DNA from: a virus | Taxonomy: Duplodnaviria > Heunggongvirae > Uroviricota > Caudoviricetes | Length of the DNA: 39,485 nucleotides | Direction: 5' to 3' (one strand) | Virus record (IMG/VR): IMGVR_UViG_2802429241_000009 | Part shown: positions 8,055 through 34,111 of the stretch, piece by piece | How the letters are laid out: each line of letters starts with the position of its first letter | Position numbering within the stretch: the stretch's first letter is position 1 | Notes under the pieces: generated by a model | The model's database searches: none | Seen by the model: the letters and a program-made list of their open reading frames with translations, nothing else | What the model was told of the DNA's origin: nothing | Position numbers and translations under genes: made by a program

Positions 8055-8083
8055 TTGATTTCGTGTCTTATGTGGTTTTTAAT
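8055..8083 (+). promoter_or_regulatory. Sigma70-like promoter candidate upstream of the gene at 8101
   Basis: -35 TTGATT, 17-bp spacer containing TTATGTGGTT, -10 TTTAAT; bracketed by operator sites 62 bp apart. Confidence 0.4.
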
Positions 8084-8097
8084 TACCTTAGAGGTAA
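8083..8097. promoter_or_regulatory. Operator-like palindrome TTACC-N5-GGTAA (downstream member, ends 4 nt before the ATG at 8101)
   Basis: Exact; overlaps the candidate -10 TTTAAT. Confidence 0.55.
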
Positions 8098-8100
8098 ATC

Positions 8101-8445
8101 ATGAGAAAACAGATACAGGCTCTTGGTCGACTCAAAACAGGCCAGATGAACAAAACAGAATCTGCGTATTGCCAGCACCTTGAGCAGCGTAAACGTGCAG
8201 GGGAAATCGCCTGGTATCGATTCGAGGGTATCAAGCTGCGGTTAGCTGACAACACGTTCTATACGCCCGATTTTGCTGTGATGCTCGCCACCGGAGAGAT
8301 GGAACTGCACGAAGTGAAAGGTTTCTGGACCGACGACGCCAGGGTGAAAACCAAAGTCGCCGCAGATCAGTATCCGTTCCGAATCATCGGGGTAACGGTT
8401 AAACCAAAGAAAGCAGGTGGTGGCTGGAACGTCGAAGAGTTCTGA
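8101..8445 (+). CDS. Small PD-(D/E)XK-motif nuclease-like protein (possible Holliday-junction resolvase type)
   Basis: 114 aa; TPDFAV ... ELHEVKG resembles a D...E.K nuclease motif; starts 4 nt after an exact operator palindrome. Confidence 0.45.
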   Translation: MRKQIQALGRLKTGQMNKTESAYCQHLEQRKRAGEIAWYRFEGIKLRLADNTFYTPDFAVMLATGEMELHEVKGFWTDDARVKTKVAADQYPFRIIGVTVKPKKAGGGWNVEEF

Positions 8446-8506
8446 ATCGACGATCTTTTTAGTTATCAATGTAATCAATAAGTTATGTGGATAAGCGAGG
8501 GTAAAG

Positions 8507-8986
8507 ATGGAAAGTAATATCAAAGGGTTAGTTTCCGCCGGGCATGAGATGGCTTCGGAACTGAAAGCAGAATGTGGTGCCGTTGATATGCGCAGTGTGG
8601 CAAAGCTGATCAGCGATTTGGCAACGCAACTGGAAGTGCAACTGGTGCGTGCTAATGCGCTGGCAGCGGAGAATGCGGGGCTGAAGGCTGCGCACCCTCA
8701 ACCATTCGGACATGAGATGATGAAGGCTCTTGATGCGTATGAGAAGCATCAGGATGAAGTGCCAGAGACTGGAATGCTCAATGCATTTTTCATCTTGCGC
8801 GACAGCATCCGTGTTGACACCCCAGCCACCGATGCTTTCCTGACTGAAATTGAACGCAAAGCAATCCGAAAGTTCATTAACAGCATTGAACACATCCTGC
8901 GTGACAAGCTGTCTCCGTATGACACCGAAGAGATGCTTGAGGCTATGCGTATTTTTCTGGAAGAACAGGGAGGTGAGCAAAAATGA
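8507..8986 (+). CDS. Hypothetical protein (159 aa)
   Basis: ORF with GAGGGT SD; no recognisable domain. Confidence 0.5.
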   Translation: MESNIKGLVSAGHEMASELKAECGAVDMRSVAKLISDLATQLEVQLVRANALAAENAGLKAAHPQPFGHEMMKALDAYEKHQDEVPETGMLNAFFILRDSIRVDTPATDAFLTEIERKAIRKFINSIEHILRDKLSPYDTEEMLEAMRIFLEEQGGEQK

Positions 8987-9972
8987 CGATCACAAAACAA
9001 CGGGTAGAAGAAATCATATCCCGCATTGAAATGTATGGGCATGGTGCAGGGTATACCGCCGAAGAGGTTTATGACCTGGCTGTACTGGCGCTGAATTTAT
9101 CAAATATCGCAAACCTGAAGCGATACGAGCTTGATATGGAAGGTTGCGACTCGTGCGGTCAGGATTGTGGCGCTGACATGACTGAAGATTCTGATGGCGA
9201 TTATGTCCTGTTTGATGACGTGGTTAAGTTGTTTGATTTTGATACAACCACTCAGAAGTTAGAAAGCCCAGCAAAGGAGGCAACCAGGGAGCAAGATGAT
9301 TATCAGGCACTGCGCGAGGCGGCAGAACGTGCAATTCCGGCAATGGAACGCCTGTTAATGTTGCCAGTTGATGATGATTTGTTAACTGAACAGGAACTTA
9401 AGGATTACGGTGTGGATATTGATGCGCTCAACGCCTTCAAATTTCTGGCCGGACCAGAAACCGTGCTGGCACTGCTGGATGAACGGGAAAGAAACCAGCA
9501 ATACATCAAACGCCGCGACCAGGAGAACGAGGAAATTGCGCTAACGGTAGGGAAGCTGCGTGTTGAGCTGGAAGGCAAAGACAGCAAAATAGCCAATCTT
9601 ACCGCCGAACGCGATGCTCTTCGTGAAGGTGAGATGGGCGACGCTAGGCATAGCAACACACGGGCCGCAGCTGATATCTACTTCCAACTGGTCGAGGAGT
9701 GCGAAATTCCTGCTGGCGGATCTCTGGTCGAGTACGTTGACGATATGCGCGAGAAGCTGGAAGCCGCAGAGAAGCGCATTGCAGAGTTAGAAAGTGGTTC
9801 TCAGGCACAAAAGTTAGTTGAAGCAATCATTGTTGCGATAGAAAACGAACAGGAAAGGCTTTTTGATGAAGATTACCTAATGGATTCGAAAGAATGCATT
9901 GACGTAATTCGTGAAGAAGTAAAGCGATGGAATGATTCCCGTGCCGCTGGCATTCGCATCAAAGGAGAGTGA
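8983..9972 (+). CDS. Hypothetical acidic coiled-coil protein (329 aa)
   Basis: Long ORF, start overlaps the upstream stop; acidic/coiled-coil composition. Confidence 0.55.
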   Translation: MTITKQRVEEIISRIEMYGHGAGYTAEEVYDLAVLALNLSNIANLKRYELDMEGCDSCGQDCGADMTEDSDGDYVLFDDVVKLFDFDTTTQKLESPAKEATREQDDYQALREAAERAIPAMERLLMLPVDDDLLTEQELKDYGVDIDALNAFKFLAGPETVLALLDERERNQQYIKRRDQENEEIALTVGKLRVELEGKDSKIANLTAERDALREGEMGDARHSNTRAAADIYFQLVEECEIPAGGSLVEYVDDMREKLEAAEKRIAELESGSQAQKLVEAIIVAIENEQERLFDEDYLMDSKECIDVIREEVKRWNDSRAAGIRIKGE

Positions 9973-9973
9973 G

Positions 9974-10165
9974 GTGGACGGACAAATATCAATTGTTCGA
10001 CCGGGAGCATGTGACGATAGCGAGATACGAATGATTATTCGTCTGGCGATGGGGAAAACAATAACCGCTCTCATTACTCCAGAAAATCTCGCATTAGCAT
10101 TAACCGGAAAGTCAGACCTACCAGTAGAGCTAAAGCTGCGAAATGTTGAGATTAAGGCGAAATAG
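9974..10165 (+). CDS. Hypothetical small protein
   Basis: GTG start preceded by AAAGGAGAG; short ORF, weak support. Confidence 0.3.
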   Translation: MDGQISIVRPGACDDSEIRMIIRLAMGKTITALITPENLALALTGKSDLPVELKLRNVEIKAK

Positions 10166-10166
10166 C

Positions 10167-10703
10167 ATGAATTCTATTACCAAAGAACGTATCGAATTAT
10201 CCATTAAAAATCCGCTTGAAAACGGGCTTACTCGTAGCGAACAAATGGAAGTGGCACGGATTGCACTGGCATCACTGGAAGCCGAACCTGTAAGCCAAAC
10301 TTACAAGTTGCCAGTTAATACACCTTGCCAAGATGCGCCAGTCAATATCTGGCTGCAAACGGCTGGAGTATGGCCAGAAGATGGCGAGTTAAGCGAATTA
10401 ACGTGGTGCAGCCACAATCAGCACCATGATGACACGCTATATGTTCGAGCTGACCTTGTAAATGGCAACTATCCGGTAACTCCGGATGGTTGGATAAGCT
10501 GTAGTGAGCGAATGCCTGAAATTAGACAAACAGTTATTGGATGGAATGGATATGCAGTTAGACAATGCGTATATACAAGGAATGAATATGCCAAGACACA
10601 GAAAGGCAGAGAGCCAAGGTTTGAAACCTTAACTGGTATATGGCATGGAGTAACCCACTGGATGCCGCTACCAGAACCGCCGCAGGAGGTTAACCGTGGC
10701 TAA
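10167..10703 (+). CDS. Hypothetical protein with a DUF551-like C-terminal segment
   Basis: 178 aa; C-terminal W..C..RMP...GW motif pattern typical of DUF551 phage proteins as recalled. Confidence 0.5.
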   Translation: MNSITKERIELSIKNPLENGLTRSEQMEVARIALASLEAEPVSQTYKLPVNTPCQDAPVNIWLQTAGVWPEDGELSELTWCSHNQHHDDTLYVRADLVNGNYPVTPDGWISCSERMPEIRQTVIGWNGYAVRQCVYTRNEYAKTQKGREPRFETLTGIWHGVTHWMPLPEPPQEVNRG

Positions 10704-10977
10704 CCTGCAACTTGCCGTCAAAGGTGAATACTTCGATGCCATGATTCGCGGGGAGAAAACGGAAGAGTATCGCTTGTGTAATGACTACTGGAATAAGCGA
10801 ATTATGTTCCGGGAGTATGACCGCCTGATTATCACAAAGGGATATCCGAAGCGCGACGACTTCAGTCGCAGAATTGACGTCCCGTATAACGGATATGAAA
10901 TAAAAACAATCACACATCCACACTTCGGTGATAAACCGGTAAAGGTATACGCGATAAAGGTAAATATTGATGGCTAA
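10696..10977 (+). CDS. Small ASCH/PUA-like domain protein
   Basis: 93 aa; GTG start after GGAGG; family assignment from recollection only. Confidence 0.45.
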   Translation: MANLQLAVKGEYFDAMIRGEKTEEYRLCNDYWNKRIMFREYDRLIITKGYPKRDDFSRRIDVPYNGYEIKTITHPHFGDKPVKVYAIKVNIDG

Positions 10978-11308
10978 ATCAGCAGCAGAGCGCAAAGCCG
11001 CTCAGAGAGCCAGACAAGCTGCATCTGGTGTGCGTAAGCTGGAAATTGTGCTTGATGCTCAGGAAATTGAAATGCTGGAGCGTAACTGTGCTACGCGTCG
11101 CCCCGGGCGTGCGCCTTACGAATTTGGTGAGTATATAGCGTTACTGATCCGCCAGGATGATGCACGCGTGCACGGGCGTATAAAATCGATCAGCAGAAAA
11201 CGTTGCGGTAAGTGCGGCGAGAGAGTTCCAGTTAATTCATGCCCGTGTAATGGTGACTCGCAATGCTGGGTGACTAAAGGCTGGCATGAAACGAAATTAA
11301 TAGTGTGA
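10970..11308 (+). CDS. Putative DNA-binding regulator: N-terminal ribbon-helix-helix-like segment plus C-terminal Cys cluster; candidate late-gene regulator
   Basis: RKLEIVLDAQEIEMLER resembles an RHH strand-helix; C-terminal C-x2-C-x8-C-x-C-x5-C; last gene before the terminator and terminase genes. Confidence 0.45.
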   Translation: MAKSAAERKAAQRARQAASGVRKLEIVLDAQEIEMLERNCATRRPGRAPYEFGEYIALLIRQDDARVHGRIKSISRKRCGKCGERVPVNSCPCNGDSQCWVTKGWHETKLIV

Positions 11309-11357
11309 CATGTTACGAGTAGATTATGCATGATGAATTTGATGGGTTTTGAATACT

Positions 11358-11384
11358 GCCGCCAACTATGGCGGCTTTATTTTG
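11358..11384 (+). terminator. Intrinsic terminator immediately upstream of the terminase small subunit gene
   Basis: GCCGCC-AACTAT-GGCGGC followed by TTTATTTTG. Confidence 0.65.
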
Positions 11385-11387
11385 CAT

Positions 11388-11419
11388 GGTACTATTACCA
11401 CAACGGTAACTATTACCAC
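11388..11419 (+). repeat. Tandem direct repeat GGTA(A)CTATTACCAC x2 between the terminator and the terminase small subunit start
   Basis: 14/15-bp units at 11388..11401 and 11405..11419; each contains the TTACC half-site, and the second forms GGTAA-CTA-TTACC. Confidence 0.5.
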
Positions 11420-11426
11420 GGTGGTT

Positions 11427-12023
11427 ATGATGCCTGCTGAACCTAAAACCTATAAACGCAAATCAACGCAATTTAAGCCGCTCACAGCAATGCAGGAGGC
11501 TTATTGCCAGTCATACATCAAAACGCCTGAAAACCAGACTCAGGCAGCGATTAACGCAGGATTCTCCCCAAATACAGCGGCAGTTAAAGCCAGTGTCATG
11601 ATGCGCGATGAACGCATTCAAAAACGGATTGCCGAGTTGATGGAGGAGCGCAACAAACGAATGCGCGTCAGTGCTGATTACGTTCTCATGCGCCTGGTGG
11701 AGATCGACCAGATGGACGTGATCGATATCCTCAACGACGATGGGAGCCTTAAACCAATCCGTGAGTGGCCGAAAATCTGGCGCACTACGCTTAGTGGCTT
11801 TGATCTGTCATCGACCATCATGAACATGAACGAGGATTCGATAGAGACAATCCTCAAAAAAATTAAATGGCCTGACAAGGTGAAGAACCTCGAACTGATT
11901 GGTAAGCACGTCGACGTCAACGCATTCAAAGAACGCCTGGATGTTAATGTGAATGTGACAATTGCTGATCGCATAGCGGCAGCCAGGAAGCGACTCAAAG
12001 AACGTCAGGATGGTAATCAGTGA
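11427..12023 (+). CDS. Terminase small subunit
   Basis: Immediately upstream of and overlapping the large terminase gene; start at ATG-ATG after GGTGG (upstream TTG start would cross a terminator hairpin). Confidence 0.65.
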   Translation: MMPAEPKTYKRKSTQFKPLTAMQEAYCQSYIKTPENQTQAAINAGFSPNTAAVKASVMMRDERIQKRIAELMEERNKRMRVSADYVLMRLVEIDQMDVIDILNDDGSLKPIREWPKIWRTTLSGFDLSSTIMNMNEDSIETILKKIKWPDKVKNLELIGKHVDVNAFKERLDVNVNVTIADRIAAARKRLKERQDGNQ

Positions 12024-13495
12024 CAGATACAGCGTTATCTCCTGAAGAGCAGTTGATCGAGGATATTGCAGGGTTCACTCACGATCCGCTTGGCTATGCC
12101 CTCTATGCGTTCCCGTGGGGGGAAGAGGGGACTGAATTAGCACATGCCACCGGTCCACGTCAGTGGCAGGCTGATGCGTTCCGAGAGATACGTGATCACC
12201 TGCAGAATCCAGAGACGCGCTATCAGCCGCTTATGCTGGCACGCGCTTCGGGTCACGGTATTGGTAAATCCGCATTCATCTCAATGCTGATCAACTGGGG
12301 CATGTCCACTTGCGAGGATTGTAAGGTCGTGGTGACCGCCAACACCGACAACCAGCTACGAACGAAGACCTGGCCGGAAATTATCAAGTGGTCGAACCTT
12401 GCTATCACGAAAGACTGGTTTACCTGTACCGCTACCGCGATGTACAGCAATGACCCTGGGCACGACAAGCGGTGGCGAGCTGACGCAATCCCCTGGTCTG
12501 AGCACAACACTGAGGCATTCGCCGGACTACACAACGAGCGCAAACGCATCATCGTGGTATTCGACGAAGCATCCAACATTGCCGATCTGGTGTGGGAGGT
12601 AGCAGAGGGTGCGCTGACGGACGAAGACACTGAGATTATCTGGGTGGCATTCGGAAACCCTACACGTAACACCGGGCGTTTCCGCGAATGTTTCCGCAAA
12701 TATAAACACCGCTGGAAAACTGCGCAGATTGACAGCCGGACGGTGGAAGGCACTAACAAACAGCAGTTGCAGAAATGGGTTGATGACTACGGGGAAGACA
12801 GCGACTTCGTTAAAATCCGTGTGCGCGGCATATTCCCGGATGCATCTGAATTGCAGTTTATCCCTACCGGCCTTACTGACGAGGCAATGAAACGGGTGGT
12901 AACCGCTGCGCAGGTTGCACATGCTCCGGTGATAATCGGCGTTGACCCGGCATACTCCGGCGTTGATGACGCTGTGATATACCTGCGGCAGGGGCTGCAC
13001 AGTAAGGTGCTGTGGACTGGCAACAAGACCACTGACGATCTGATTATGGCGAAGCGTATCGCTGACTTTGAAGACCAGTACCAGGCTGACGCGGTATTCA
13101 TCGACTTCGGTTACGGTACCGGTCTGAAGTCAATCGGTGACGGCTGGGGGCGTACATGGCAACTTGTTCCGTTCGGCGGTGCGTCCACTGACCCGCAGAT
13201 GCTTAACAAGCGTGGGGAGATGTTCAACTCATGTAAGACATGGCTGAGGCTGGGCGGCATGCTGGATGACCAGGAAACAGCGGACGACCTGTCGGCGGCA
13301 GAGTACAAAGTTCGCGTGGACGGTAAAATCGTTATCGAACCGAAGGAAGATATCAAGGAGCGGCTTGGGCGTTCTCCTGGTAAAGGCGATGCGCTATTGC
13401 TGACGTTTGCTTTCCCGGTGTCGAAGCGCCTGCGACTTCCCGGGCAGCAGAACCAGCAAGGCAAGGCCATTACAGATTACGATCCCTATGCTTAA
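12020..13495 (+). CDS. Terminase large subunit
   Basis: 491 aa; Walker A-like ARASGHGIGKS; position upstream of portal. Confidence 0.9.
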   Translation: MTDTALSPEEQLIEDIAGFTHDPLGYALYAFPWGEEGTELAHATGPRQWQADAFREIRDHLQNPETRYQPLMLARASGHGIGKSAFISMLINWGMSTCEDCKVVVTANTDNQLRTKTWPEIIKWSNLAITKDWFTCTATAMYSNDPGHDKRWRADAIPWSEHNTEAFAGLHNERKRIIVVFDEASNIADLVWEVAEGALTDEDTEIIWVAFGNPTRNTGRFRECFRKYKHRWKTAQIDSRTVEGTNKQQLQKWVDDYGEDSDFVKIRVRGIFPDASELQFIPTGLTDEAMKRVVTAAQVAHAPVIIGVDPAYSGVDDAVIYLRQGLHSKVLWTGNKTTDDLIMAKRIADFEDQYQADAVFIDFGYGTGLKSIGDGWGRTWQLVPFGGASTDPQMLNKRGEMFNSCKTWLRLGGMLDDQETADDLSAAEYKVRVDGKIVIEPKEDIKERLGRSPGKGDALLLTFAFPVSKRLRLPGQQNQQGKAITDYDPYA

Positions 13496-13623
13496 TCCGC
13501 TGGAGGGGATAATGACGAAGATATCCTCTGGCGAGGATAAAGCAAATCCAGTCTATGAGCTGGCTGTTTGTGACATGTCACGACATCAAAATGCATCGAA
13601 TTCGTATTTCATGATTCACAGCT

Positions 13624-13648
13624 TAAAAAAATGCCCGGCGAACCGGGC
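13624..13648 (-). terminator. Intrinsic terminator on the minus strand downstream of the tRNA gene
   Basis: Minus-strand hairpin GCCCGG-TTCG-CCGGGC followed by ATTTTTTT. Confidence 0.65.
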
Positions 13649-13811: not shown

Positions 13812-13888
13812 TGGCGTGGCATGCAGGATTCGAACCTGCGACCAACCGCTTAGAAGGCGGTTGCTCTGTCCGACTGAGCTAATGCCAC
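13812..13888 (-). tRNA. tRNA-Arg (anticodon UCU), phage-borne
   Basis: 77 nt with full cloverleaf: 7-bp acceptor GTGGCAT/ATGCCAC, D-stem GCTC/GAGC, anticodon stem ACCGC/GCGGT with loop CTTCTAA, T-arm GCAGG-TTCGAAT-CCTGC, encoded CCA; close to E. coli argU as recalled. Confidence 0.85.
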
Positions 13889-14210
13889 AACGCTGAGAGC
13901 ACTTAGCCTGTTAAGGCACCACACTTTGTTGCGGCTCCATAAATGCTCTCATCGTTGTACCCTCGTCTCTTCCGAGGCGTCACACCGAATCGCCAGGATG
14001 GTGAATCCCCGTGCGCGGAATAAAACCGCTCGACTTGCACATTCCGGCTACCTGGTTCGTTTGCCCGAGCAAGGGAGGGTGCCCCTTAAACGTATCCAGA
14101 CCGCTATCGTCGCATGTGCCATACGCCGTACTGCTCAAAATAAAAGCTCACTCCACCTGTTCAATTTAACGACAAGCCAGTCAGGTTAGTAACCGGAATG
14201 AACTTTTTGG

Positions 14211-14225
14211 TTACCTTAAAGGTAA
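14211..14225. promoter_or_regulatory. Operator-like palindrome TTACC-N5-GGTAA upstream of the portal-proximal genes
   Basis: Exact; in the noncoding region between the tRNA and the structural genes. Confidence 0.5.
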
Positions 14226-14315
14226 TAATTCGTGCGTTAAATGTCAACCATCTACGATAAATAAATCATATGTGGTTAAATTGGTAATAATTTAATTGCG
14301 TACGGAGTCATTGAT

Positions 14316-27814: not shown

Positions 27815-27819
27815 ATTAA

Positions 27820-30294
27820 ATGAGACAGGAATGTATACAAGCGGTCCAGCAGGCGGCGCAGCGCACGTTAACGGCGCGAGAAATACAGAACATTGAAGAC
27901 CGCATTTATCGCAATATGCGCTCCATTGCTCGTGATGACCCTATGTCGTGGCGACAACTTTCCGAGTCAGAGCGGCTGTATCGTGCAGCACAATTGGCAT
28001 CTGAAGAATTACAGCGAGAAGCGGCATTAAAGAAACGTCGTGTGGCTCTCACTATAGCCGCACGTCAGAGATTGGATAAATTTATCAATAGCTATCAAGG
28101 GGCTGATGGGAAACTTGGCGCTCTTAACCGTACTATTGCTTTTAATGCAGACGGTAAATCGAATTTCCTCTCTGTTGAGTCCAGAACAAAAGCCACTCGT
28201 GATTATGCATTGAGTCAATTGCAGGAGGCATTCGAAGCAGTTGATCCTCGCTTTTTTGGCCTGTTTGAAGATGAAGCGGGCGTGCGTGACCTGGTATATG
28301 AAATGCGAGGGCAAAATACTGGCAATGCTAAAGCAAGAAAAGGTGCTAAGGCGTGGAGAGAAGTGACAGATCTACTCCGCCGCCGGTTTAATGATGCTGG
28401 TGGGGACATTGGCTATCTCGAAAACTGGGGGATCCCTCAACATCATTCTATGGAAAAGGTTGGGGCGGTATCAAAGGATAAGTGGGTTAGCGATGTTATA
28501 GGTAAGCTGGATCGCAAATATTATATCCGAGCCGATGGACAACTGATGAATGATGCCGAGTTGTCTGCATTTCTTGGAGAGGCTTATAACACGATCGCTA
28601 CTGGTGGGCTGAATAAGCTTACTGATACCGGAATGCGAATTTCCGGCGCACGTGCTAACCGTGGTAATGCATCACGACAGATACATTTCAAAGATGCAGA
28701 TTCCTATCTCCAATATCAACAACTTTATGGCGATCGCTCTCTATGGGAAATCATGGTCGGTCACCTGGAAGGGATCAGTAAAGATATTGCTCTGGTGGAA
28801 ACATATGGCCCAAACCCCGATCATGTTTTCCGTTCCCTTCTTGATCAGGTGAAGGCTGAAACGGCAACAGCTAACCCGAGTAAAACCGGTAGCGTTGAGC
28901 GGCTGGCGAACAAAACAGAGAACCTGTACAACTTTATTTCCGGAAAGACACAGCCTGTAGCTAATCCGCACATCGCGCGATGGTCTGACAATATCCGCAA
29001 CTGGCTGGTTGCCAGCAGACTCGGATCCGCGTTGCTGTCATCGTTCTCTGATCTTGGAACCATGTATCTGTCTGCGAAGGTTACCAACCTTCCAATGAAC
29101 CAGTTATTCCGCAACCAGCTTGAAGCTATGGACCCAACGAACCGTACTGAGCTTGCGCGGGCGCGCCGAGCTGGTCTGGCGATGGAATCTCTACTTGGCA
29201 GCGTTAACCGCTGGGCGATGGATAATATGGGGCCGTCTGTGTCTCGTTGGGCGGCAACGGCGGTAATGCGTGCCAGTGGGCTTACAGCATGGTCAGATGC
29301 GCACAAGCGCGCCTATGGCGTAACTATGATGGGAAGCCTGGGAGAAGTAGTGTCACGGACACCAGACCTTCGTAGCCTCGATGACTCTGATTTTCGTATC
29401 CTGAAAAGCAAAGGGATTACTGACACAGACTGGAGCGTATGGAAGCTGGCGCAACAGGAGGACTGGGGGAACGGTAATAATACGATGCTGACACCGGAAA
29501 GCATTATGCGTATCCCTGATTCAGCAGTTAAACATCTTGGTGAGCCTGAACGTGTGAAATTTGAGGCAATGCGTAAACTGCTCGGTGCCGTAACTGAAGA
29601 AGTTGATATGGCTGTTATTACACCGGGCGCACGTGAACAGATGTTCGTAGGGTCTGGTCTTCAGCGTGGAACATGGAAAGGTGAATTAACGAGAAGTGTT
29701 TTCCTGTTTAAATCGTTCCCTATCTCGGTAGTTATGCGTCACTGGCATAGAGCTATGGGGATGCCGTCTGCTGGTGGGCGTGCGGCATATATAGCAACGT
29801 TTTTAGCAAGCACAACCATGCTTGGTGCTCTTTCCATGCAGATTACTGATCTTATTAATGGGAGAAATCCAAAAGAAATGACCGGTGACAACATGGTTAA
29901 ATTCTGGATAAATGCATTTTTAAAAGGTGGTGGGGCAGGGTTGTATGGTGATTTTCTTTTCTCTGACCACACCAGGTACGGGAGCGGCGCACTAGCGTCG
30001 ATGCTTGGCCCGGTAGCTGGTCTGGTTGATGACGTAGTGAAGATTGCTCAGGGCATACCGTTAAATGCTGTGGAAGGGAAGAATGAGCAGACTGGTGGTG
30101 ATCTGGTTAAGCTTGGGAAAGGTTTGATGCCTGGTGCGAATCTCTGGTACTTGAAGGCGGCTCTCGATCACATGATCTTTAACCAGATGCAGGAGTATTT
30201 TTCACCAGGCTATTTGCGTAAAATGGAGCAACGTTCGAAGAAAGAGTTTAATCAGACATACTGGTGGCGACCTCAGGATGTCACTCCGCAATAA
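27820..30294 (+). CDS. Internal virion / ejection protein (T7 gp16-like position)
   Basis: 824 aa; GAGAGG SD. Confidence 0.55.
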   Translation: MRQECIQAVQQAAQRTLTAREIQNIEDRIYRNMRSIARDDPMSWRQLSESERLYRAAQLASEELQREAALKKRRVALTIAARQRLDKFINSYQGADGKLGALNRTIAFNADGKSNFLSVESRTKATRDYALSQLQEAFEAVDPRFFGLFEDEAGVRDLVYEMRGQNTGNAKARKGAKAWREVTDLLRRRFNDAGGDIGYLENWGIPQHHSMEKVGAVSKDKWVSDVIGKLDRKYYIRADGQLMNDAELSAFLGEAYNTIATGGLNKLTDTGMRISGARANRGNASRQIHFKDADSYLQYQQLYGDRSLWEIMVGHLEGISKDIALVETYGPNPDHVFRSLLDQVKAETATANPSKTGSVERLANKTENLYNFISGKTQPVANPHIARWSDNIRNWLVASRLGSALLSSFSDLGTMYLSAKVTNLPMNQLFRNQLEAMDPTNRTELARARRAGLAMESLLGSVNRWAMDNMGPSVSRWAATAVMRASGLTAWSDAHKRAYGVTMMGSLGEVVSRTPDLRSLDDSDFRILKSKGITDTDWSVWKLAQQEDWGNGNNTMLTPESIMRIPDSAVKHLGEPERVKFEAMRKLLGAVTEEVDMAVITPGAREQMFVGSGLQRGTWKGELTRSVFLFKSFPISVVMRHWHRAMGMPSAGGRAAYIATFLASTTMLGALSMQITDLINGRNPKEMTGDNMVKFWINAFLKGGGAGLYGDFLFSDHTRYGSGALASMLGPVAGLVDDVVKIAQGIPLNAVEGKNEQTGGDLVKLGKGLMPGANLWYLKAALDHMIFNQMQEYFSPGYLRKMEQRSKKEFNQTYWWRPQDVTPQ

Positions 30295-30303
30295 GGAAGT
30301 GTT

Positions 30304-30477
30304 GTGTTTTTAATTATTTTGAGTGTGATAATTTCTGGTGGGTTGTTATTTATTGACCGCTACAAATATTTTCTTAACCCTCAGACTCAAGCTATTTGCT
30401 GGTTCATCTTTGTTGTGCAGGGAATAGTTCTTGTTGCAAGCCTTATTGAGGGGAGGCCTCTGATTTTTACTGGGTAA
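30304..30477 (+). CDS. Small hydrophobic membrane protein (57 aa, two predicted TM segments)
   Basis: Not in the ORF track; GTG start after AAGGAAG; VFLIILSVIISGGLLFI and ICWFIFVVQGIVLVASLI hydrophobic stretches. Confidence 0.3.
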   Translation: MFLIILSVIISGGLLFIDRYKYFLNPQTQAICWFIFVVQGIVLVASLIEGRPLIFTG

Positions 30478-30489
30478 ATAGGTGACTAC

Positions 30490-30786
30490 ATGCAAGCGAT
30501 AGGATTCATTGTTTATATCGTCGTTGGCCTTTTTCAGTTGGCAGCAATTATGGCTGGGCTTGAATCAAGGTGGGGATTGCACTGGATAATTGCAGCCCCC
30601 ATTGCTTTCATCGTGAGCTATATTCCATTTGTTGGAGCGATTGTTGGTATGGTTGGTGCTGTGGATGTATGGCGGTGGGAGTGGTGGCAGGCTGGCCTTC
30701 TCTTCTTTGGTGGGATCATCTTTGCTATTGTCTGCGGTGGAATGTCATCATTTTTCGAACGGCTATCATTCAGAAAAGGAACGTGA
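30490..30786 (+). CDS. Small integral membrane protein (98 aa, about 3 TM segments)
   Basis: Strongly hydrophobic ORF; GGTGA SD; followed by a hairpin plus T-run terminator. Confidence 0.5.
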   Translation: MQAIGFIVYIVVGLFQLAAIMAGLESRWGLHWIIAAPIAFIVSYIPFVGAIVGMVGAVDVWRWEWWQAGLLFFGGIIFAIVCGGMSSFFERLSFRKGT

Positions 30787-30794
30787 CATGTCAC

Positions 30795-30819
30795 AGGCCG
30801 CTTTCGCGGCCTTGTTTTT
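30795..30819 (+). terminator. Intrinsic terminator after the 98-aa membrane protein gene
   Basis: AGGCCGC-TTTC-GCGGCCT followed by TGTTTTTA; lies between convergent genes. Confidence 0.65.
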
Positions 30820-30979
30820 AACGAATGCCACCGCCACCCGGGCGGGAATCCGCAGAACGCCCACCGCAGCGGGAGCCGTCAGCGGCAGTATCGCTGTCGT
30901 GCTGACAACGACCGGCAAAAGCCTGAGTTGAAGCTACCAGAGACAACAAAACGAACAGTGCAGCAAATGCTTTTTTCAT
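30818..30979 (-). CDS. Signal-peptide microprotein (53 aa; mature peptide about 31 aa with 2 Cys)
   Basis: MKKAFAALFVLLSLVASTQAFA looks like a Sec signal peptide with an AFA cleavage site; convergent with the upstream + gene; competing + ORF 30788..30931 crosses the terminator. Confidence 0.35.
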   Translation of the reverse strand: MKKAFAALFVLLSLVASTQAFAGRCQHDSDTAADGSRCGGRSADSRPGGGGIR

Positions 30980-31051
30980 TGTGAAATTTCCATCCATAAG
31001 CCACCTCAATGTGGCGTCAATGAGTGTAGCACTGACTTTTGTTTCGTCCAC

Positions 31052-31074
31052 AAAAAAAGCCCGCAGCGCTGGCT
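31052..31074 (-). terminator. Intrinsic terminator at the 3' end of the 179-aa membrane protein gene
   Basis: Minus-strand imperfect hairpin overlapping the stop codon followed by TTTTTTTG. Confidence 0.5.
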
Positions 31075-31613
31075 TACCAAAACTTGTACCACGGGGATTT
31101 ATCCTTCAATGGGCAATCCTTCCATCGTGTGGCCAACCATTCATATTCTTTAAAATATGTGTTTATGTTTTCTTTTTCTCTAATGGCTTGTATAAGAGGT
31201 AGCGCAATCTGATAGTTATTTACAACGGAGCTGTAAAATACTTCCTTAATCATGGTCTCATCATAAGTTTTCCGCTTCACGCTCACAGCCATGCGTTCGT
31301 AGAAACCTAGACAGTAAATTATTTCTCTCTTCTCTGTCTTTTCTTCATCCGTAAGATCAGCCTGCCCATTGCTTGGATACATATAAGAGCGGAATGATTT
31401 GTTCGATTCGTGAATGCGGCGCATAGTAGATAGGCCTTTCTTATAATCTACATCAAACCTGCTTTCACCAAGGAATACTGAAGTGTGTACTTTTCTCGCT
31501 GTATTTACATTATAAATAATAGTAGCGATAGCTATGAACAAGCCAAGCGAAACCGCGACTGCACTTACGATTTGAGCCACAGCCATGGCAAATTGCATTT
31601 CTTCACTTAACAC
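31074..31613 (-). CDS. Membrane-anchored hypothetical protein (179 aa), AT-rich gene; candidate superinfection-exclusion or defence protein
   Basis: GTG start after GGAGA; N-terminal TM (AMAVAQIVSAVAVSLGLFIAIATIIY); visibly lower GC than neighbours; hairpin/U-run structures at both ends. Confidence 0.55.
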   Translation of the reverse strand: MLSEEMQFAMAVAQIVSAVAVSLGLFIAIATIIYNVNTARKVHTSVFLGESRFDVDYKKGLSTMRRIHESNKSFRSYMYPSNGQADLTDEEKTEKREIIYCLGFYERMAVSVKRKTYDETMIKEVFYSSVVNNYQIALPLIQAIREKENINTYFKEYEWLATRWKDCPLKDKSPWYKFW

Positions 31614-31630
31614 AAACTGTCTCCAGACAT

Positions 31631-31653
31631 GAAAACGGGGCCTAATGGCCCCG
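31631..31653 (-). terminator. Hairpin plus short U-run between the antirepressor gene and the 179-aa gene (terminator or attenuator)
   Basis: Minus-strand CGGGGCC-ATTA-GGCCCCG followed by TTTTC, ending about 20 nt before the GTG start of the 179-aa gene. Confidence 0.45.
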
Positions 31654-31822
31654 TCATTAAACTATCCGAATGTTAAACGCCTTCGTACTCGTCAAATTTT
31701 CTCATGTGGGCTCCTCCTGTATCGGTGCATAATCGCTATGGATCACCCGTGAGGTAATAGTAAGCTATTCACCTGCAATCTGTACAGAATTATTTAAAGG
31801 CACATCCCTGTGCCGCCGCTCG

Positions 31823-32509
31823 TCAGAAGAACCCTGCCTTGTCGTTGATGTACTCCGCGTGCGTCTGGATATCACGCAGGCATTTGCTCACACCGACGAT
31901 GTAGCAGAACATGGTGGTCAACTCCGCCGCCGCGCCCGATACGTCGTGCCCGTCTTCCTGTAACTGGTTCAGCAGATTCATCAGCAGTGAGTTCTCCGTC
32001 AGGCCGAGAACACCAGACGGCGAGTGAATCAGGCTGCGGTAGCCTGGCTTCAGCGGGGCGCTGTAGGTTTTGTTCTCTATCTTCATCGCCTGCATCACTG
32101 CTGACGCCGTGGCGTTGGCTACCTGGTCGGCAACCATCTTTATGCGTTCTTCCTGCGGGAGCGAGTTTTTAATGTAACTTCCGGTGCGGCGGATCTGAGG
32201 AAGAACCTCACCTGTAACCCATTTACGAAAGCGGTAGGGGATAGTGCCTGGTGTCACCGCATCGCGGCAGCGGAGGATCAGTGTGTAGAGGCCTGACTCG
32301 CTGATAATATTGGTTTCGCCTTGACGACCTAAGTTAAATTTAGCCCTTTCATCATCATCAAGAGATTTGATTGACATGGTGGGGTTTGTCAGTTGAAGAG
32401 CTTTAATAACGTCTTTGGCAACAAACCAAGGATTTCCATCAATAACAATGGCTCGAATGGTTGCTTCTGATTCAAAATGAAAAACAGATGGGGTTACGTT
32501 AGCAGTCAT
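31823..32509 (-). CDS. BRO-N domain antirepressor-like protein
   Basis: N-terminal SVFHFESEATIRAIVIDGNPWFVAKDVIKALQL resembles the BRO-N signature; AGGTG SD before the ATG; long structured leader upstream. Confidence 0.7.
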   Translation of the reverse strand: MTANVTPSVFHFESEATIRAIVIDGNPWFVAKDVIKALQLTNPTMSIKSLDDDERAKFNLGRQGETNIISESGLYTLILRCRDAVTPGTIPYRFRKWVTGEVLPQIRRTGSYIKNSLPQEERIKMVADQVANATASAVMQAMKIENKTYSAPLKPGYRSLIHSPSGVLGLTENSLLMNLLNQLQEDGHDVSGAAAELTTMFCYIVGVSKCLRDIQTHAEYINDKAGFF

Positions 32510-32667
32510 GGCAATCACCTTTTAGTATGGTTAATCACCACCTGAGGTGCAAATCTCGTTGGTGGTGAGACGTACAGGGTTTGCACTACCGGCTAAAAGG
32601 ACCCGGCGCACCTTTCGGTGCCCCTGCACGTCCCACCATAATTCTGGCATGACTGTGCTATACGCAT

Positions 32668-32690
32668 AAAAAAACCACGTCTGGCGTGGT
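32668..32690 (-). terminator. Intrinsic terminator inside the antirepressor upstream region (attenuator or 3' end of a short RNA)
   Basis: Minus-strand ACCACG-CCAGA-CGTGGT followed by TTTTTTTAT. Confidence 0.6.
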
Positions 32691-32750
32691 ATGCGCCTTT
32701 TAGTAATCCGGGGTGCAAATCCCGGCACTGGATTTTGCCAGTGCTCGATT

Positions 32751-32779
32751 ACTATGGCACAAGAGGAGTGCGATGTAAA
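32751..32779 (-). promoter_or_regulatory. Candidate leftward promoter of a short structured RNA / antirepressor leader
   Basis: Minus-strand -35 TTTACA (plus 32774..32779), 17-bp spacer, -10 CATAGT (plus 32751..32756); predicted start near 32744. Confidence 0.3.
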
Positions 32780-32780
32780 T

Positions 32781-32795
32781 TTACCGCAAAGGTAA
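32781..32795. promoter_or_regulatory. Operator-like palindrome TTACC-N5-GGTAA adjacent to a candidate leftward promoter of the antirepressor leader
   Basis: Exact; abuts the candidate -35 (TTTACA on the minus strand). Confidence 0.5.
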
Positions 32796-32873
32796 TGATA
32801 AACGCTGATAAATATAAAAATCAACCGTATTTGGTTGATTGCGTTTAACGCTTGATCACCTGAAAGCAAGATA

Positions 32874-32888
32874 TTACCTTTAAGGTAA
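32874..32888. promoter_or_regulatory. Operator-like palindrome TTACC-N5-GGTAA just upstream of the zinc-ribbon protein gene
   Basis: Exact; overlaps the alternative ATG at 32888. Confidence 0.5.
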
Positions 32889-32908
32889 TGTTATTGTGGG
32901 GAAAAGCA

Positions 32909-33637
32909 ATGGAAGTTTTCTGGATAGTTGTTGGTGTGGTTGCGGTGATTATTTACGTTATCAACCAGAACAAGACTAAGATCTCTGATCGTACGGTCGT
33001 TAATCATAACAAAACGATAAAGACCGAAGATGGGGAGATAACGATTAATCGTACACAGGTGATAGAACACACCTCTACTCAGTTTCAAAAAACTGGAGGT
33101 AATGCGCCTAATATTTCCGCACCTCCTGCTTATGATAGTGCGGTAATCCAGACATATTATAAACAGCAGGAGTTAGCAAAAGAGAGGCAACTGATTCAGC
33201 CAAAGCCGTTTACAGCTGAGCTTCCACCTGGAGTGTCAACGCGTCCGGCATATCATGGAAGATTCCCTGGTGATGACATATCGTCTCAGTCATCTAAAAA
33301 AGCACCTCAGGCAGTATCAGAGCCAGCAAGAATACCTTCTGTATCGCCGCCAAAAGAAGAATCAGCTAACAGAGTTTCAAGTGGTAGCAAGCAGTGCTTG
33401 CGATGCAGAATAAACCTTCCATATGAAAAATTCAGGAAATCGTCAAAAAATCCAGATGGATTGACTAAGTGGTGTGCAAGGTGTCTCGATGGCCCAAAGA
33501 ATACACGCCATATGAAGTGGTGCCCAATTTGTAATGTCCGCAGAAAACGAACCAGTTTTTACCCTAATAATCAAAATGCGGATGGCTTAATGGCATGGTG
33601 CAAAACGTGCTGGGACGAGCACAAAGCGAAACGATAG
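32909..33637 (+). CDS. Membrane-anchored protein with a tandem C-terminal zinc-ribbon-like repeat
   Basis: N-terminal TM (VFWIVVGVVAVIIYVI); Ser/Pro-rich linker; two repeats of C-x2-C-x(17-20)-DGL-x3-WC-x2-C; ATG at 32888 is an alternative start. Confidence 0.55.
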   Translation: MEVFWIVVGVVAVIIYVINQNKTKISDRTVVNHNKTIKTEDGEITINRTQVIEHTSTQFQKTGGNAPNISAPPAYDSAVIQTYYKQQELAKERQLIQPKPFTAELPPGVSTRPAYHGRFPGDDISSQSSKKAPQAVSEPARIPSVSPPKEESANRVSSGSKQCLRCRINLPYEKFRKSSKNPDGLTKWCARCLDGPKNTRHMKWCPICNVRRKRTSFYPNNQNADGLMAWCKTCWDEHKAKR

Positions 33638-33660
33638 GCCGCTCTTGCGGCCTTTTCTTT
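33637..33660 (+). terminator. Intrinsic terminator after the zinc-ribbon protein gene, between convergent genes
   Basis: GGCCGC-TCTT-GCGGCC followed by TTTTCTTT. Confidence 0.65.
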
Positions 33661-33916
33661 ATGTGGTTTGTTTTCGTAGTTGTTCGGCACAATAGTCGAG
33701 ATGTGTTTGCAGATCCTGCATAGACATCTGTGAGCTGGTGACGTAGTTAATCAGTGCAGTCAGTTCGGCAAGTGGGCCATCGACATTAAATCCATCCTTA
33801 TCGAGATCCCGGAGTAATTTCATCAAGTGCGATCCCTCCACCAGTGATCTGACGCCTCCCGGCGTGTGAATCCTTTCGGTAAATCCGTCTTCCAGTGGAT
33901 AGTGATACCGCTGCAT
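33659..33916 (-). CDS. Small antirepressor-domain protein (85 aa), putatively LexA-controlled
   Basis: Homologous by eye to the C-terminal about 80 aa of the BRO-N protein at 31823..32509 (shared IH.P.GV, LM.LL, DG..V.G..AELT, D.QTH..Y); GGAGAAG SD; LexA-box-like site 21 nt upstream. Confidence 0.55.
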   Translation of the reverse strand: MQRYHYPLEDGFTERIHTPGGVRSLVEGSHLMKLLRDLDKDGFNVDGPLAELTALINYVTSSQMSMQDLQTHLDYCAEQLRKQTT

Positions 33917-33935
33917 CTTATCTTCTCCATGTAAT

Positions 33936-33955
33936 AACTGTATATTTATACAGTA
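33936..33955. promoter_or_regulatory. LexA box (SOS box) candidate
   Basis: AACTGTATATTTATACAGTA: CTGT-N8-ACAG with an all-A/T spacer, 18 of 20 matches to TACTGTATATATATACAGTA as recalled; 21 nt upstream of the ATG of the minus-strand gene 33659..33916. Confidence 0.7.
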
Positions 33956-33992
33956 TCAAATAATTTGTTTGCTATCCAGCACGTTTTGCAAA

Positions 33993-34007
33993 TTACCTGA
34001 AAGGTAA
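33993..34007. promoter_or_regulatory. Operator-like palindrome TTACC-N5-GGTAA in the divergent region between the small antirepressor-domain gene and the tailspike
   Basis: Exact inverted repeat. Confidence 0.5.
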
Positions 34008-34111
34008 TATCTATTCGTATTCACAGTCTTTCTATCCATATGTGGTTTTTCAGGTAATAGAATAACCAGATATGCGGCGCAACGGGTGCTGCGACTATCT
34101 GGAGATTTAAC

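Follow-up and report, generated by a model that had tools for sequence, protein, structure and literature searches.

A recurring partly symmetric dyad in promoter regions of an epsilon15-like prophage, a candidate operator for a second phage regulator

What is read at a short string that recurs upstream of the genes of a temperate phage? The question is raised by the window analysed here, a 39,485-nt stretch that is an epsilon15/phiV10-like (Uetakevirus) temperate prophage, in which the 9-mer TATGTGGTT occurs exactly four times, always on the plus strand (Table 1). A preliminary description had taken it for a shared promoter element or activator site of rightward, late-type transcription units.

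Recurrence and symmetry of the motif

The repeat is genuine. Between 0.25 and 0.31 copies of TATGTGGTT are expected in the window, and none of 1000 dinucleotide shuffles reached four. The near-copies that the preliminary description listed at 32828 (TATTTGGTT), 36278 (TATATGGTT) and 6149 (ATATGGTT) are real and part of the same element; absent from its list were a further near-copy at 4991 (TATCTGGTT), within the spacer of the leftward promoter PL, and an inverted one on the minus strand, beside the tailspike promoter. TATATGGTT also occurs at 34916, inside the tailspike gene, probably by chance. As had been claimed, copies lie downstream of an operator and upstream of a plus-strand gene: three of the four exact copies are 31-43 bp past a Rep operator, and the same three are 24-65 bp before a plus-strand start codon.

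The recurring unit is longer than nine bases, however. TATGTGGTT is the right arm and centre, the better-conserved part, of an imperfect 14-bp dyad with the consensus AACCATATATGGTT (AACC-N6-GGTT). When eight sites were picked by the right arm alone and their left arms were then scored, these matched AACCA at 24 of 40 positions, a score reached in none of 100,000 random local draws; the left-arm mean for the 35 other T.TGGTT occurrences in the window was 0.83 of 5. Dyads with at most two mismatches number five, against 0.107 expected (0 of 1000 shuffles), and all five fall in non-coding DNA, which makes up 9% of the window. The palindrome is perfect at the lysis site of phiV10 (AACCATATATGGTT), and Tyrion has seven dyad sites with 0-3 mismatches, the perfect consensus among them. 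The right arm is far better conserved than the left, which is weak at several sites (five mismatches to the consensus at P_DUF1064, four at PL), so the site may be asymmetric. The element occurs in either orientation: its conserved arm faces opposite to the direction of transcription at PL, and the unit served from 32823 runs leftward. The restriction to the plus strand thus holds for the 9-mer as a string, but not for the transcription units that the element serves.

Table 1. Coordinates of the dyad sites, Rep operators and candidate regulators in the window
Feature	Position	Strand	Remarks
Degenerate dyad	4986-4999	-	plus strand ATGCGTATCTGGTT; in PL direction AACCAGATACGCAT
Rep repressor gene	5100-5684	-	42% identical to SPC32H Rep (PDB 5D50); two HTH-like regions
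gp39-like gene, cro position	5839-6069	+	76 aa; favoured candidate binder (putative)
Near-perfect dyad AACCAAATATGGTT	6145-6158		4 bp past Rep operator (6124-6140)
Rep operator pair clamping P_DUF1064	8020-8036 and 8082-8098		62 bp centre to centre
Dyad TGTCTTATGTGGTT	8064-8077	+	exact 9-mer 8069-8077
Dyad AATCATATGTGGTT	14264-14277	+	exact 9-mer 14269-14277; upstream of gp3/portal (head) operon
Dyad AACCGTATTTGGTT	32823-32836		between Rep operators 32780-32796 and 32873-32889
Site at ant 3' end	33655-33668	+	exact 9-mer 33660-33668; left arm poor (TTCTT)
LexA box	33933-33954		near Rep operator 33992-34008
Rep operator ATTACCTGAAAGGTAAT	33992-34008		between ant and tailspike promoters
Dyad ATCCATATGTGGTT	34034-34047	+	exact 9-mer 34039-34047
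Inverted one-mismatch copy TATCTGGTT	34064-34072	-	directly downstream of tailspike -10
Dyad ATTCATATATGGTT	36273-36286	+	upstream of lysis cassette

Placement in promoters and conservation in relatives

Seven of the eight sites lie in or next to the PL, DUF1064/terminase, head (gp3), C4/isrK-Bro antirepressor, tailspike and lysis promoters and the promoter after the cro-position gene. Promoter assignments in the window are consensus-based predictions, and none could be made for gp3. At P_DUF1064 the dyad and the three bases before it fill the 17-bp spacer between the -35 (TTGATT, 8055-8060) and the -10 (TTTAAT, 8078-8083). The dyad also fills the 17-bp spacer of leftward PL (TTGACA, 5008-5003; AATCAT, 4985-4980), where the Rep operators (4965-4981 and 5027-5043) have the same geometry as the P_DUF1064 pair; the Tyrion orthologue of this site is AACCATATATGGAT. 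At the tailspike promoter it covers the -35 (TCCATA, 34035-34040), and the -10 region (TAGAAT, 34058-34063) is bracketed by the exact 9-mer and its inverted copy. Only the first two -35 bases are overlapped at two others: the promoter located between the gp39-like gene with its terminator and the replication genes (TTGATC, 6157-6162), and, on the minus strand, the predicted leftward promoter (TTGATT, 32824-32819) upstream of an isrK-like RNA, a C4 RNA and the Bro-N antirepressor gene. The gp3 dyad is 58 bp, start to start, from the operator core at 14211 (17-mer 14210-14226), and a GGTAAT half-operator follows it at 14283-14288. A -10-like TATCAT (36291-36296) accompanies the lysis site. The eighth site is not intergenic: preceded by a terminator (33636-33653), it overlaps the stop codon of the minus-strand ant (antirepressor) homologue, whose Thr-Thr-stop the 9-mer encodes, and its function in this window is doubtful.

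Between the motif and the candidate -10 there are 0, 4, 7 or 10 bp, depending on promoter and genome. Because its position relative to the -35 and -10 varies and the units it serves lie on both strands, the element is not a sigma-70 hexamer, nor is it confined to late genes read rightward; the variation in position is in keeping with an operator and speaks against a sequence that RNA polymerase recognises. Of the initial proposal, the part that is supported is a conserved cis-element shared among promoter regions flanked by Rep operators. Its reading as promoter code for RNA polymerase lacks support, and so does the assignment to rightward, late-type units, since the element is also found at early promoters (PL and the one ahead of the replication genes) and at the leftward C4/isrK-Bro unit.

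A search of related phage genomes, which had been suggested at the outset, found orthologous sites kept amid diverged flanks in epsilon15, phiV10, SPC32H, Tyrion, BUCT554, BUCT711 and about ten further prophage species, with sites in prophages of Salmonella, Klebsiella, Enterobacter and others. The distantly related prophages of Providencia and Morganella share the architecture with another palindrome, ATAAAC-N5-GTTTAT, which lies in the spacer of the equivalent promoter and is followed by a Rep-type operator. No description of the motif was found in annotation or in the literature searched, and the dyad is unannotated in the epsilon15 (AY150271.2) and phiV10 records.

Candidate binding proteins

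The dyad is most likely the site of a second phage regulator and not promoter code for RNA polymerase. That a protein binds it, which protein this is and in which direction it regulates are all points that we infer from the sequence. With about even confidence, we propose an operator-type site for a dimeric phage HTH regulator, most likely the gp39-like protein encoded at the cro position. This protein matches PHROG 35 ("transcriptional repressor"), and its predicted structure (pLDDT 87) has five helices in an XRE/Cro-type HTH fold, closest to YdaS, the 434 repressor, P22 c2 and restriction-modification C proteins. All genomes that retain the dyad share one recognition helix in this protein, TSHYIQ(T/V)HL, and those that have lost or altered the dyad have a different helix. 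This covariation is not clean, since the Pantoea genome is without the ATAAAC palindrome although its gp39 helix resembles that of Morganella, and ATGGTT half-sites persist beside -35 elements even in distant relatives with a diverged gp39. Also counting against gp39, the rep-gp39 intergenic region (PR/PRM), where a true Cro analogue would be expected to bind, holds no dyad.

Most promoters under Rep control have one dyad within their core or directly next to it, as a rule flanked by Rep operators or beside one; according to this model it would be an operator distinct from the 17-bp Rep operator ATTACC-N5-GGTAAT. Upon inactivation of Rep, the gp39-like protein would be made at once from PR. 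Where the dyad is in the spacer (PL, P_DUF1064) or over the -35 (tailspike, probably gp3 and lysis), bound protein would compete with RNA polymerase, and these promoters would be turned down or delayed. At the upstream Bro promoter and the one after gp39, where the dyad borders the -35 and is centred near -40, bound protein could activate, in the manner of class II activators and restriction-modification C proteins. At promoters other than those two the site overlaps the region contacted by RNA polymerase, and repression is therefore the simpler prediction.

The main rival to the gp39-like protein as binder is Rep itself; the two are present together in every phage record found, so co-occurrence cannot separate them. 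The dyad would be an auxiliary, lower-affinity Rep site, read either by the N-terminal HTH at an altered half-site and spacing (AACC-N6-GGTT, not TACC-N5-GGTA) or by a second, C-terminal HTH_3-like domain, and a Rep tetramer bound at the operators on either side would extend over the promoter core as well. Rep does contain two regions that resemble an HTH: residues 21-61 weakly match YdaS, and residues 106-147 match HTH_3 (E = 1e-9). Precisely 4 bp separate the dyad from the edge of a Rep operator at PL, P_DUF1064 and the promoter after gp39, a gap repeated at the ant 3' end in phiV10 and Tyrion. Rep-type operators tolerate TAACC/GGTTA half-sites, as in the second terS operator (ATTACCACGGTGGTTAT) and the Proteus-type TTAACC-N5-GGTTAA, and at gp3 and the tailspike the right arm of the dyad sits where the left half of the proximal operator is missing (GTGGTT-N5-GGTAAT). 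We nevertheless consider Rep unlikely. The half-site spacing is 1 bp off that of every Rep operator and no dyad fits the operator pattern; the lysis dyad has no Rep operator nearby in this window; and although window-type and epsilon15-type phages share the dyad, the C-terminal recognition helix of their Rep proteins (42% identical overall) shows poor conservation. In SPC32H the C-terminal domain of Rep reportedly serves tetramerisation and Ant binding, which also counts against this explanation.

Next in probability, and likewise improbable, is the view of the preliminary description, an asymmetric TATRTGGTT with one reading direction, bound by a late-transcription activator and standing in for a weak -35 at the head, tailspike and lysis promoters. 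Late promoters do have poor -35 hexamers, the motif there covers the -35 position or follows it closely, and its much better conserved right arm always points with transcription at these promoters. Possible activators are a PerC-like protein, a small zinc-finger gp40-like protein, or gp39 acting only positively; the window carries genes for a PerC-family activator homologue (2089-2388) and a Cys/His-rich protein of 64 aa (6236-6430), both of which all seven complete genomes in the comparison retain. Against this, the element also occupies early promoters with good -35 hexamers, in the spacer and reversed at PL, relatives carry perfect palindromes, and so variable a gap to the -10 would be unusual for an activator that contacts RNA polymerase.

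Binding by a host protein is very unlikely, whether an architectural one that helps to bend the Rep loops, which at 58-93 bp are short, or a global regulator that couples phage promoters to host physiology. Phages of Escherichia, Salmonella, Klebsiella, Enterobacter and Pantoea all retain the element, dyads lie inside Rep-operator pairs whose short spacing demands sharp bending, and the TATATA centre is flexible. IHF sites predicted in the GenBank record of epsilon15 lie close to several operators but do not coincide with the motif. By inspection the dyad does not fit the IHF, CRP, LexA or DnaA consensus (the best DnaA-box fit still has one mismatch); it lies away from the loop apex, and in distant relatives from other Enterobacterales it is replaced by a different palindrome.

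Least probable of all is a part of the core promoter read by sigma-70 RNA polymerase with no dedicated protein (a -35-like TTCATA, an extended -10 or a spacer element): the left half of the dyad is the best tailspike -35 candidate (T(C/T)CATA, 17 bp, TAGAAT; mean 9.4 bits over five genomes) and TRTGG resembles the extended -10 motif TRTGn, but the position relative to the -35 and -10 is unlike at each promoter, orientation is reversed at PL, TG is never at -15/-14 of any plausible -10, and in distant relatives another palindrome takes its place.

Comparison with known systems

The phage 434 operator, ACAA-N6-TTGT, is 14 bp long and has the same layout as AACC-N6-GGTT. Like lambdoid Cro/CI operators of this kind, the dyad has 4-bp outer half-sites and an A/T-rich 6-bp centre and overlaps the core promoter, and its candidate binder has a five-helix XRE fold, sits at the cro position and matches the 434 repressor and P22 c2. 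In lambdoid phages, however, Cro and CI share operators at PR/PRM and PL, whereas the dyad differs from the Rep operator, is missing from PR/PRM, and is scattered over early, late, lysis and antirepressor promoters.

The dyad shares its promoters, an ACC/GGT core and a genome-wide spread beyond any one immunity region with the Rep operators of epsilon15 and SPC32H, annotated as "repressor" binding sites in AY150271.2. It differs from them in the fourth half-site base (GGTT, not GGTA), in spacing (N6, not N5), in length (14 bp, not 17 bp), and in lying in the promoter core, which Rep operators flank.

Restriction-modification C proteins are small XRE dimers of about 75-80 aa whose palindromes (C-boxes) abut or overlap the -35, with activation or repression according to the site occupied. 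The closest fold matches of gp39 include C.AhdI, C.BclI, C.EcoT38IS and C.Kpn2I, at weak E-values (0.6-3), and the Bro promoter and the one after gp39 each have the dyad directly against the -35. A C protein, however, controls one promoter, its own, whereas here there are about eight sites, none at the regulator's own promoter.

The elements of the lambda Q and Pseudomonas AlpA antiterminators sit between the -35 and -10 (PMC9371919), as the dyad does at PL and P_DUF1064, and here too intrinsic terminators separate operons. Those elements are asymmetric and need a downstream -10-like pause site, whereas the dyad is partly symmetric and at other promoters is found beyond the spacer. No protein resembling Q or Pseudomonas AlpA was recognised; the AlpA-family protein of the window is of the 82-aa excisionase type (PF05930).

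Sites in and around the repeated 9-mer

A class of partly symmetric, conserved sites overlaps promoter cores beside the operators of the phage repressor, Rep. The preliminary description had listed four exact plus-strand copies of the 9-mer TATGTGGTT and three near-copies, and all seven are present. The expectation for exact copies is 0.31 or 0.25, and none of 1000 dinucleotide shuffles reached four. Three of the four exact copies have the placement first proposed, downstream of an operator and upstream of a plus-strand gene, lying 31-43 bp 3' of a Rep operator and 24-65 bp 5' of plus-strand starts. The fourth differs: it follows a terminator and spells the Thr-Thr-stop of ant, the minus-strand homologue of SPC32H Ant, and in the window it is probably a coding coincidence. 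Since phiV10 and Tyrion have GGTAAT, 4 nt and AACCTTAT(G/C)TGGTT at this place, the ant 3'-end site may be functional in those phages.

The 9-mer is the right arm and centre of an imperfect 14-bp palindrome, AACC-N6-GGTT, here called the dyad. At the phiV10 lysis promoter the palindrome is perfect, AACCATATATGGTT, and seven sites in Tyrion match this 14-mer with 0-3 mismatches (at gp3, the ant 3' end, the tailspike gene, the lysis cassette, the leftward early promoter PL, the promoter after gp39, and P_DUF1064, the DUF1064/terminase promoter). At a threshold of two mismatches the window contains five such 14-mers against 0.107 expected, all within the non-coding 9% of the window, and 0 of 1000 shuffles yielded five. 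Eight promoter-associated sites were first picked up by their right arms, and their left arms are independent. Twenty-four of the 40 left-arm positions match AACCA, the reverse complement of the right arm; 35 other occurrences of T.TGGTT average 0.83 of 5 (about 6.6 of 40), and none of 100,000 random local draws reached 24. The symmetry is imperfect at several sites, the right arm TGGTT being near-invariant and the left arm roughly A(A/T)(C/T)CA. Dyad symmetry, as found in operators of HTH dimers, is thus present at the level of sequence.

Coordinates of the sites and of neighbouring features (window positions unless a relative is named)
Feature	Position	Strand	Remark
Integrase gene	1-1251		start codon exactly at nt 1
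PerC-like gene	2089-2388
PL	4965-5043		leftward
rep	5100-5684	-	repressor
gp39-like gene	5839-6069	+	cro position, 76 aa
gp40-like gene	6236-6430	+	Cys/His-rich
P_DUF1064	8020-8098
Exact 9-mers	8069, 14269, 33660, 34039	+	33660 in ant
Near-copies of the 9-mer	6149, 32828, 36278
14-mers, at most two mismatches	6145, 14264, 32823, 34034, 36273
Terminator before terS	11358-11375
Abutting Rep operators	11394-11428		before probable terS start
tRNA-Arg	13812-13888	-
Rep operator	14210-14226		contains TACCTT
TTGACA	14242-14247	-	TGTCAA on plus strand
Bro-N antirepressor-like gene	31823-32518	-
C4 and isrK-like RNAs	32558-32744	-
249-aa ORF	32888-33637	+
ant	33659-33916	-
LexA-box-like palindrome	33933-33954
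Right-end genes	38412-39485	-	two genes
ATAAAC-N5-GTTTAT, Providencia and Morganella relatives	L097: 290, 534, 3498; L101: 194, 709, 3915		three perfect copies per locus

Placement within promoters

The promoters are predictions, some of them scored with a sigma-70 weight matrix averaged over five genomes. Seven of the eight promoter-linked sites in the window lie in or against a predicted promoter; at gp3 this scoring over the five genomes gave no assignable promoter. Recurrence at several promoters and overlap with promoter elements are again what is seen in HTH-dimer operators.

PL and P_DUF1064 are near-duplicate designs with CTATTGA at the -35. Each consists of a distal Rep operator, 15 nt, a -35 (CTATTGAC(A/T) or CTATTGATT), a 17-bp spacer, and a -10 that is fused to the ATTACC of a proximal Rep operator, the two operators being 62 bp apart. 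The operator pairs suggest that Rep tetramers loop the DNA around the promoter, each loop spanning six helical turns. Both Tyrion spacers are composed of 3 nt plus the 14-mer (AACCATATATGGAT and AACCGTATATGGAT). The window's P_DUF1064 spacer contains TGTCTTATGTGGTT, and its PL spacer reads AACCAGATACGCAT in the direction of PL, so that the conserved arm there points against transcription.

Elsewhere the dyad occupies other parts of the core. The tailspike promoter is clear (T(C/T)CATA-17-TAGAAT, 9.4 bits, compared with 9.3 bits for P_DUF1064, TTGATT-17-TTTAAT) and has its -35 inside the dyad. At the promoter that follows the gp39-like gene and a terminator (TTGATC, 8.1 bits) the -10 is about 21 nt past the dyad end; the dyad overlaps just the first two bases of the -35, which puts its centre near -40. 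The lysis promoter has a weak sigma-70 score. The dyad at 32823 lies between two Rep operators and, on the minus strand, overlaps the -35 of TTGATT-18-TATCAT, the upstream Bro promoter. Downstream is another leftward promoter, TTTACA-17-CATAGT, and its predicted start matches the 5' end of an isrK-like RNA; the C4 antisense RNA and the Bro-N antirepressor gene follow. The dyad therefore is not confined to rightward, late-type units, as had been suggested, but is found at early, middle, late and accessory promoters; it occurs on both strands, and its position in the core varies. The PR/PRM region between rep and gp39 and the double operator at terS have no dyad.

The locus upstream of the Bro-N gene, with its P1/P7-type C4 antisense RNA (RF01695, 77.8 bits) and isrK-like Hfq-binding RNA (RF01394, 67.4 bits), is an immI-like second antirepression module with Rep operators on its flanks. 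It is present in addition to the LexA-controlled ant homologue. Just 5' of ant is a LexA-box-like palindrome, CTGTATATTTATACAG, that is kept in epsilon15, phiV10 and SPC32H; it fits the LexA control that has reportedly been published for SPC32H ant.

Several known kinds of element were compared with the dyad, the closest being Cro/CI operators (434 geometry), the Rep operators of this family, the C-boxes of restriction-modification systems, and Q/AlpA elements (PMC9371919). The Rep operator as defined (ATTACC-N5-GGTAAT) has TACC/GGTA half-sites with N5 rather than AACC/GGTT with N6, and a search with TTACCNNNNNGGTAA at no more than one mismatch returned 13 sites, none of them a dyad copy. Loading sites for Q/AlpA antiterminators are asymmetric, come with a -10-like pause element in the early transcribed region and are located between the -35 and the -10 (PMC9371919), a position that the dyad takes at just two of about eight sites; the dyad is moreover symmetric, and Pfam and PHROG scans of the small regulators turned up no recognisable Q-like protein, so this reading was rejected. 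A sigma-70 core element would keep one position and one orientation relative to its partner hexamer and the transcription start. The dyad instead takes up the spacers of PL, where it is inverted, and of P_DUF1064, spans the tailspike -35, and shares just 2 nt with the -35 of the post-gp39 and Bro promoters. No register of the 9-mer as a -10, -35 or extended -10 fits across the sites, and by inspection none consistently puts TG at -15/-14 of a -10 with A-11 and T-7. An element that keeps its identity while shifting relative to the -35 and -10, in both orientations, and that is part-palindromic, behaves like a protein operator and not like an element read by RNA polymerase. Use in both orientations also argues for function at the DNA level rather than in a 5' leader RNA; an Rfam scan of the window at gathering thresholds found only tRNA-Arg, C4 and isrK, and nothing at any motif copy. 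Host-factor sites were dismissed by inspection: the IHF consensus (WATCAANNNNTTR) fails by a single base in the spacer, the DnaA box (TTWTNCACA) has at least one mismatch and is lost in the TATATGGTT variants, CRP (TGTGA-N6-TCACA) lacks a second half-site, and the LexA box (CTGT-N8-ACAG) lies elsewhere.

Conservation among relatives

Megablast and annotated relatives place the 39.5-kb window as the E. coli kind of epsilon15/phiV10-type temperate podophage, genus Uetakevirus, with PAS61, phiv142-3, TL-2011b and phiV10 as the nearest records. Its genes are in prophage order, the integrase gene first. The two genes at the right end encode a DUF5384 protein and a glycine-zipper/TraT-like lipoprotein, which fits either morons or host flank in prophage order. 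The Rep operator core, TTACC-N5-GGTAA, occurs 13 times against 0.66 expected, and the epsilon15 GenBank record marks the same positions as repressor-binding sites (in the immunity region and upstream of terS, gp3, the tailspike gene and the RuvC/DUF1064 position).

The motif recurs in related phages, at orthologous positions in epsilon15, phiV10 and SPC32H. In the upstream regions of gp3, DUF1064/RuvC, the tailspike gene and the lysis cassette, alignment with Tyrion, BUCT554 and BUCT711 shows the motif as a conserved block amid diverged flanks. Sixteen enterobacterial prophages were recovered by their portal protein (from Scandinavium, Kluyvera, Citrobacter, Buttiauxella, Pantoea, Klebsiella and others). 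In twelve of these both the operator and TAT(G/A)TGGTT are retained ahead of gp3, and the motif always begins 58 bp after the operator core begins; the Providencia, Proteus and Morganella prophages have not retained them. The TGGTT arm shows no variation in 59 distinct gp3-upstream sequences in which other intergenic columns vary, a profile drawn from close relatives; a gp3 scan of viral contigs, which gave identical relatives only, was of use for this profile alone.

The distant Providencia and Morganella relatives have a Rep that is 33-36% identical to that of the window. Their cro-position protein has diverged too far to give a like value, with 43% over a partial alignment in Morganella and no tblastn match in Providencia. 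Their counterpart of P_DUF1064 has TTGAAA as its -35, a spacer filled by a palindrome, and a Rep-type operator after it (TTAACC-N5-GGTTAA in Providencia, TTGACC-N5-GGTAAT in Morganella), but the palindrome there is ATAAAC-N5-GTTTAT rather than the dyad. Replacement of the palindrome within a layout that is kept is what a co-evolving protein-DNA pair would give.

The epsilon15 and phiV10 records leave the dyad unannotated, one epsilon15 copy being overlapped solely by a predicted RNase III site. No description of the motif was found in the literature searched, which lay outside the primary epsilon15 and SPC32H papers, and a full-text search for its sequence returned primers only. Judged by sequence features, the dyad resembles an HTH-dimer operator and departs from the definitions of sigma-70 hexamers, Rep operators, Q/AlpA elements and the host-factor sites considered; on these grounds we class it as a putative phage operator.

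Candidate binding proteins and proposed regulation

The favoured candidate for the protein that binds the dyad is the gp39-like product of the cro-position gene. It matches PHROG 35 ("transcriptional repressor", 5.6e-13), with no match in Pfam or NCBIfam. Its AlphaFold2 model is a five-helix bundle (pLDDT 87) whose nearest solved folds are YdaS, 434 repressor, P22 c2, SinR and several restriction-modification C proteins, in Foldseek matches that are weak (E 0.6-3, TM scores up to 0.62). All dyad-sharing phages of E. coli, Salmonella, Klebsiella and Enterobacter have an identical predicted recognition helix, TSHYIQ(T/V)HL; between the two subgroups of these phages, identity in Rep is just 42-45%. 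A different helix is found in Pantoea, Morganella, Providencia and Proteus, in which the dyad has degenerated, is missing or has been replaced; this covariation in distant prophages is suggestive rather than clean, Pantoea being the exception. Directly 3' of the gene are a terminator, a Rep operator, the window's best dyad and the replication-gene promoter. The PHROG and fold matches, the pairing of helix and dyad, and the gene position point to gp39 as the favoured candidate binder. The assignment is made less certain by the lack of a dyad at PR/PRM, by the Pantoea exception and by the constant co-occurrence of Rep: gp39 and Rep, found in 37 and 40 phage records respectively, are always together, so co-occurrence fails to tell them apart. 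Homologues of gp39 were found in this phage group only.

The main rival is Rep itself, which may read the dyad through a second HTH region. Two regions of Rep are HTH-like, one matching YdaS weakly (residues 21-61) and the other matching HTH_3 strongly (106-147); the dyad is repeatedly exactly 4 bp from the edge of a Rep operator, and half-sites of the form GGTTA and TAACC are tolerated in Rep-type operators. The HTH_3 region falls in what was reportedly crystallised as the tetramerisation and Ant-binding domain of SPC32H Rep (5D50/5D4Z). Profile comparison found no homology between the Rep N-terminal domain and gp39. Other conserved small proteins, PerC-like and gp40-like, are less favoured candidates. 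The gp40-like gene is the first after the best dyad and is better conserved in distant relatives than rep or gp39; its product has a C-x-H-G-H...C-x2-C motif, matches PHROG 1081 (unknown function), and may be a zinc-finger regulator.

The putative binder of the dyad is a dimeric HTH protein. At promoters whose spacer is filled or whose -35 is covered by the dyad, a bound protein should get in the way of RNA polymerase, with repression or delay of transcription as the result. A dyad that abuts the -35, its centre near -40, has the layout seen with class II activators and C proteins, which would make activation possible; the candidate sites are the post-gp39 promoter and the upstream Bro promoter. 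A more far-reaching reading, which we consider unlikely, is that every lytic promoter of this phage family carries two different operators, with Rep clamping the outside and the core dyad serving the cro-position protein or a second DNA-binding domain of Rep. On this reading, the cro-position protein, if it is the binder, would be a bifunctional switch: from about -40 it would activate the promoters of replication and antirepression, and it would turn down or time those of the early, head, tail and lysis genes. Such a switch would provide a temporal programme without a dedicated late activator or antiterminator. Rep, if it is the binder, would be a repressor of dual specificity, with two HTH domains for two operator classes.

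Work on serotype conversion, on repressor/antirepressor switching (Rep-Ant structures) and on reporter-phage engineering uses phages of the epsilon15, phiV10 and SPC32H types as models. The operators annotated in them are Rep operators only, and we know of no late activator or antiterminator that controls their late genes. The dyad may be a missing regulatory layer of this well-studied group, and a second conserved operator class in nearly all lytic promoters would identify that layer; if the dyad is instead a mere weak Rep site, it would be a modest refinement of a known system. The testable list is short, eight sites in the window and two candidate proteins. For engineering, altering or retaining the 14-mer would be expected to affect how the tailspike, lysis and packaging genes are expressed.

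Other arrangements of Rep operators were also seen. Directly before the probable terS start, and following a terminator, two Rep operators abut 18 bp apart; the second has a GGTTA half-site (ATTACCACGGTGGTTAT), and the pair is kept in relatives. A perfect minus-strand -35, kept in all relatives, lies 17 bp from a TACCTT inside a Rep operator, and together they are probably a Rep-controlled leftward promoter for tRNA-Arg and an upstream minus-strand ORF. Directly 3' of another Rep operator is a 249-aa ORF, the C-terminal Cys-rich repeats of which match endonuclease VII and Lar-like zinc modules among the PHROGs.
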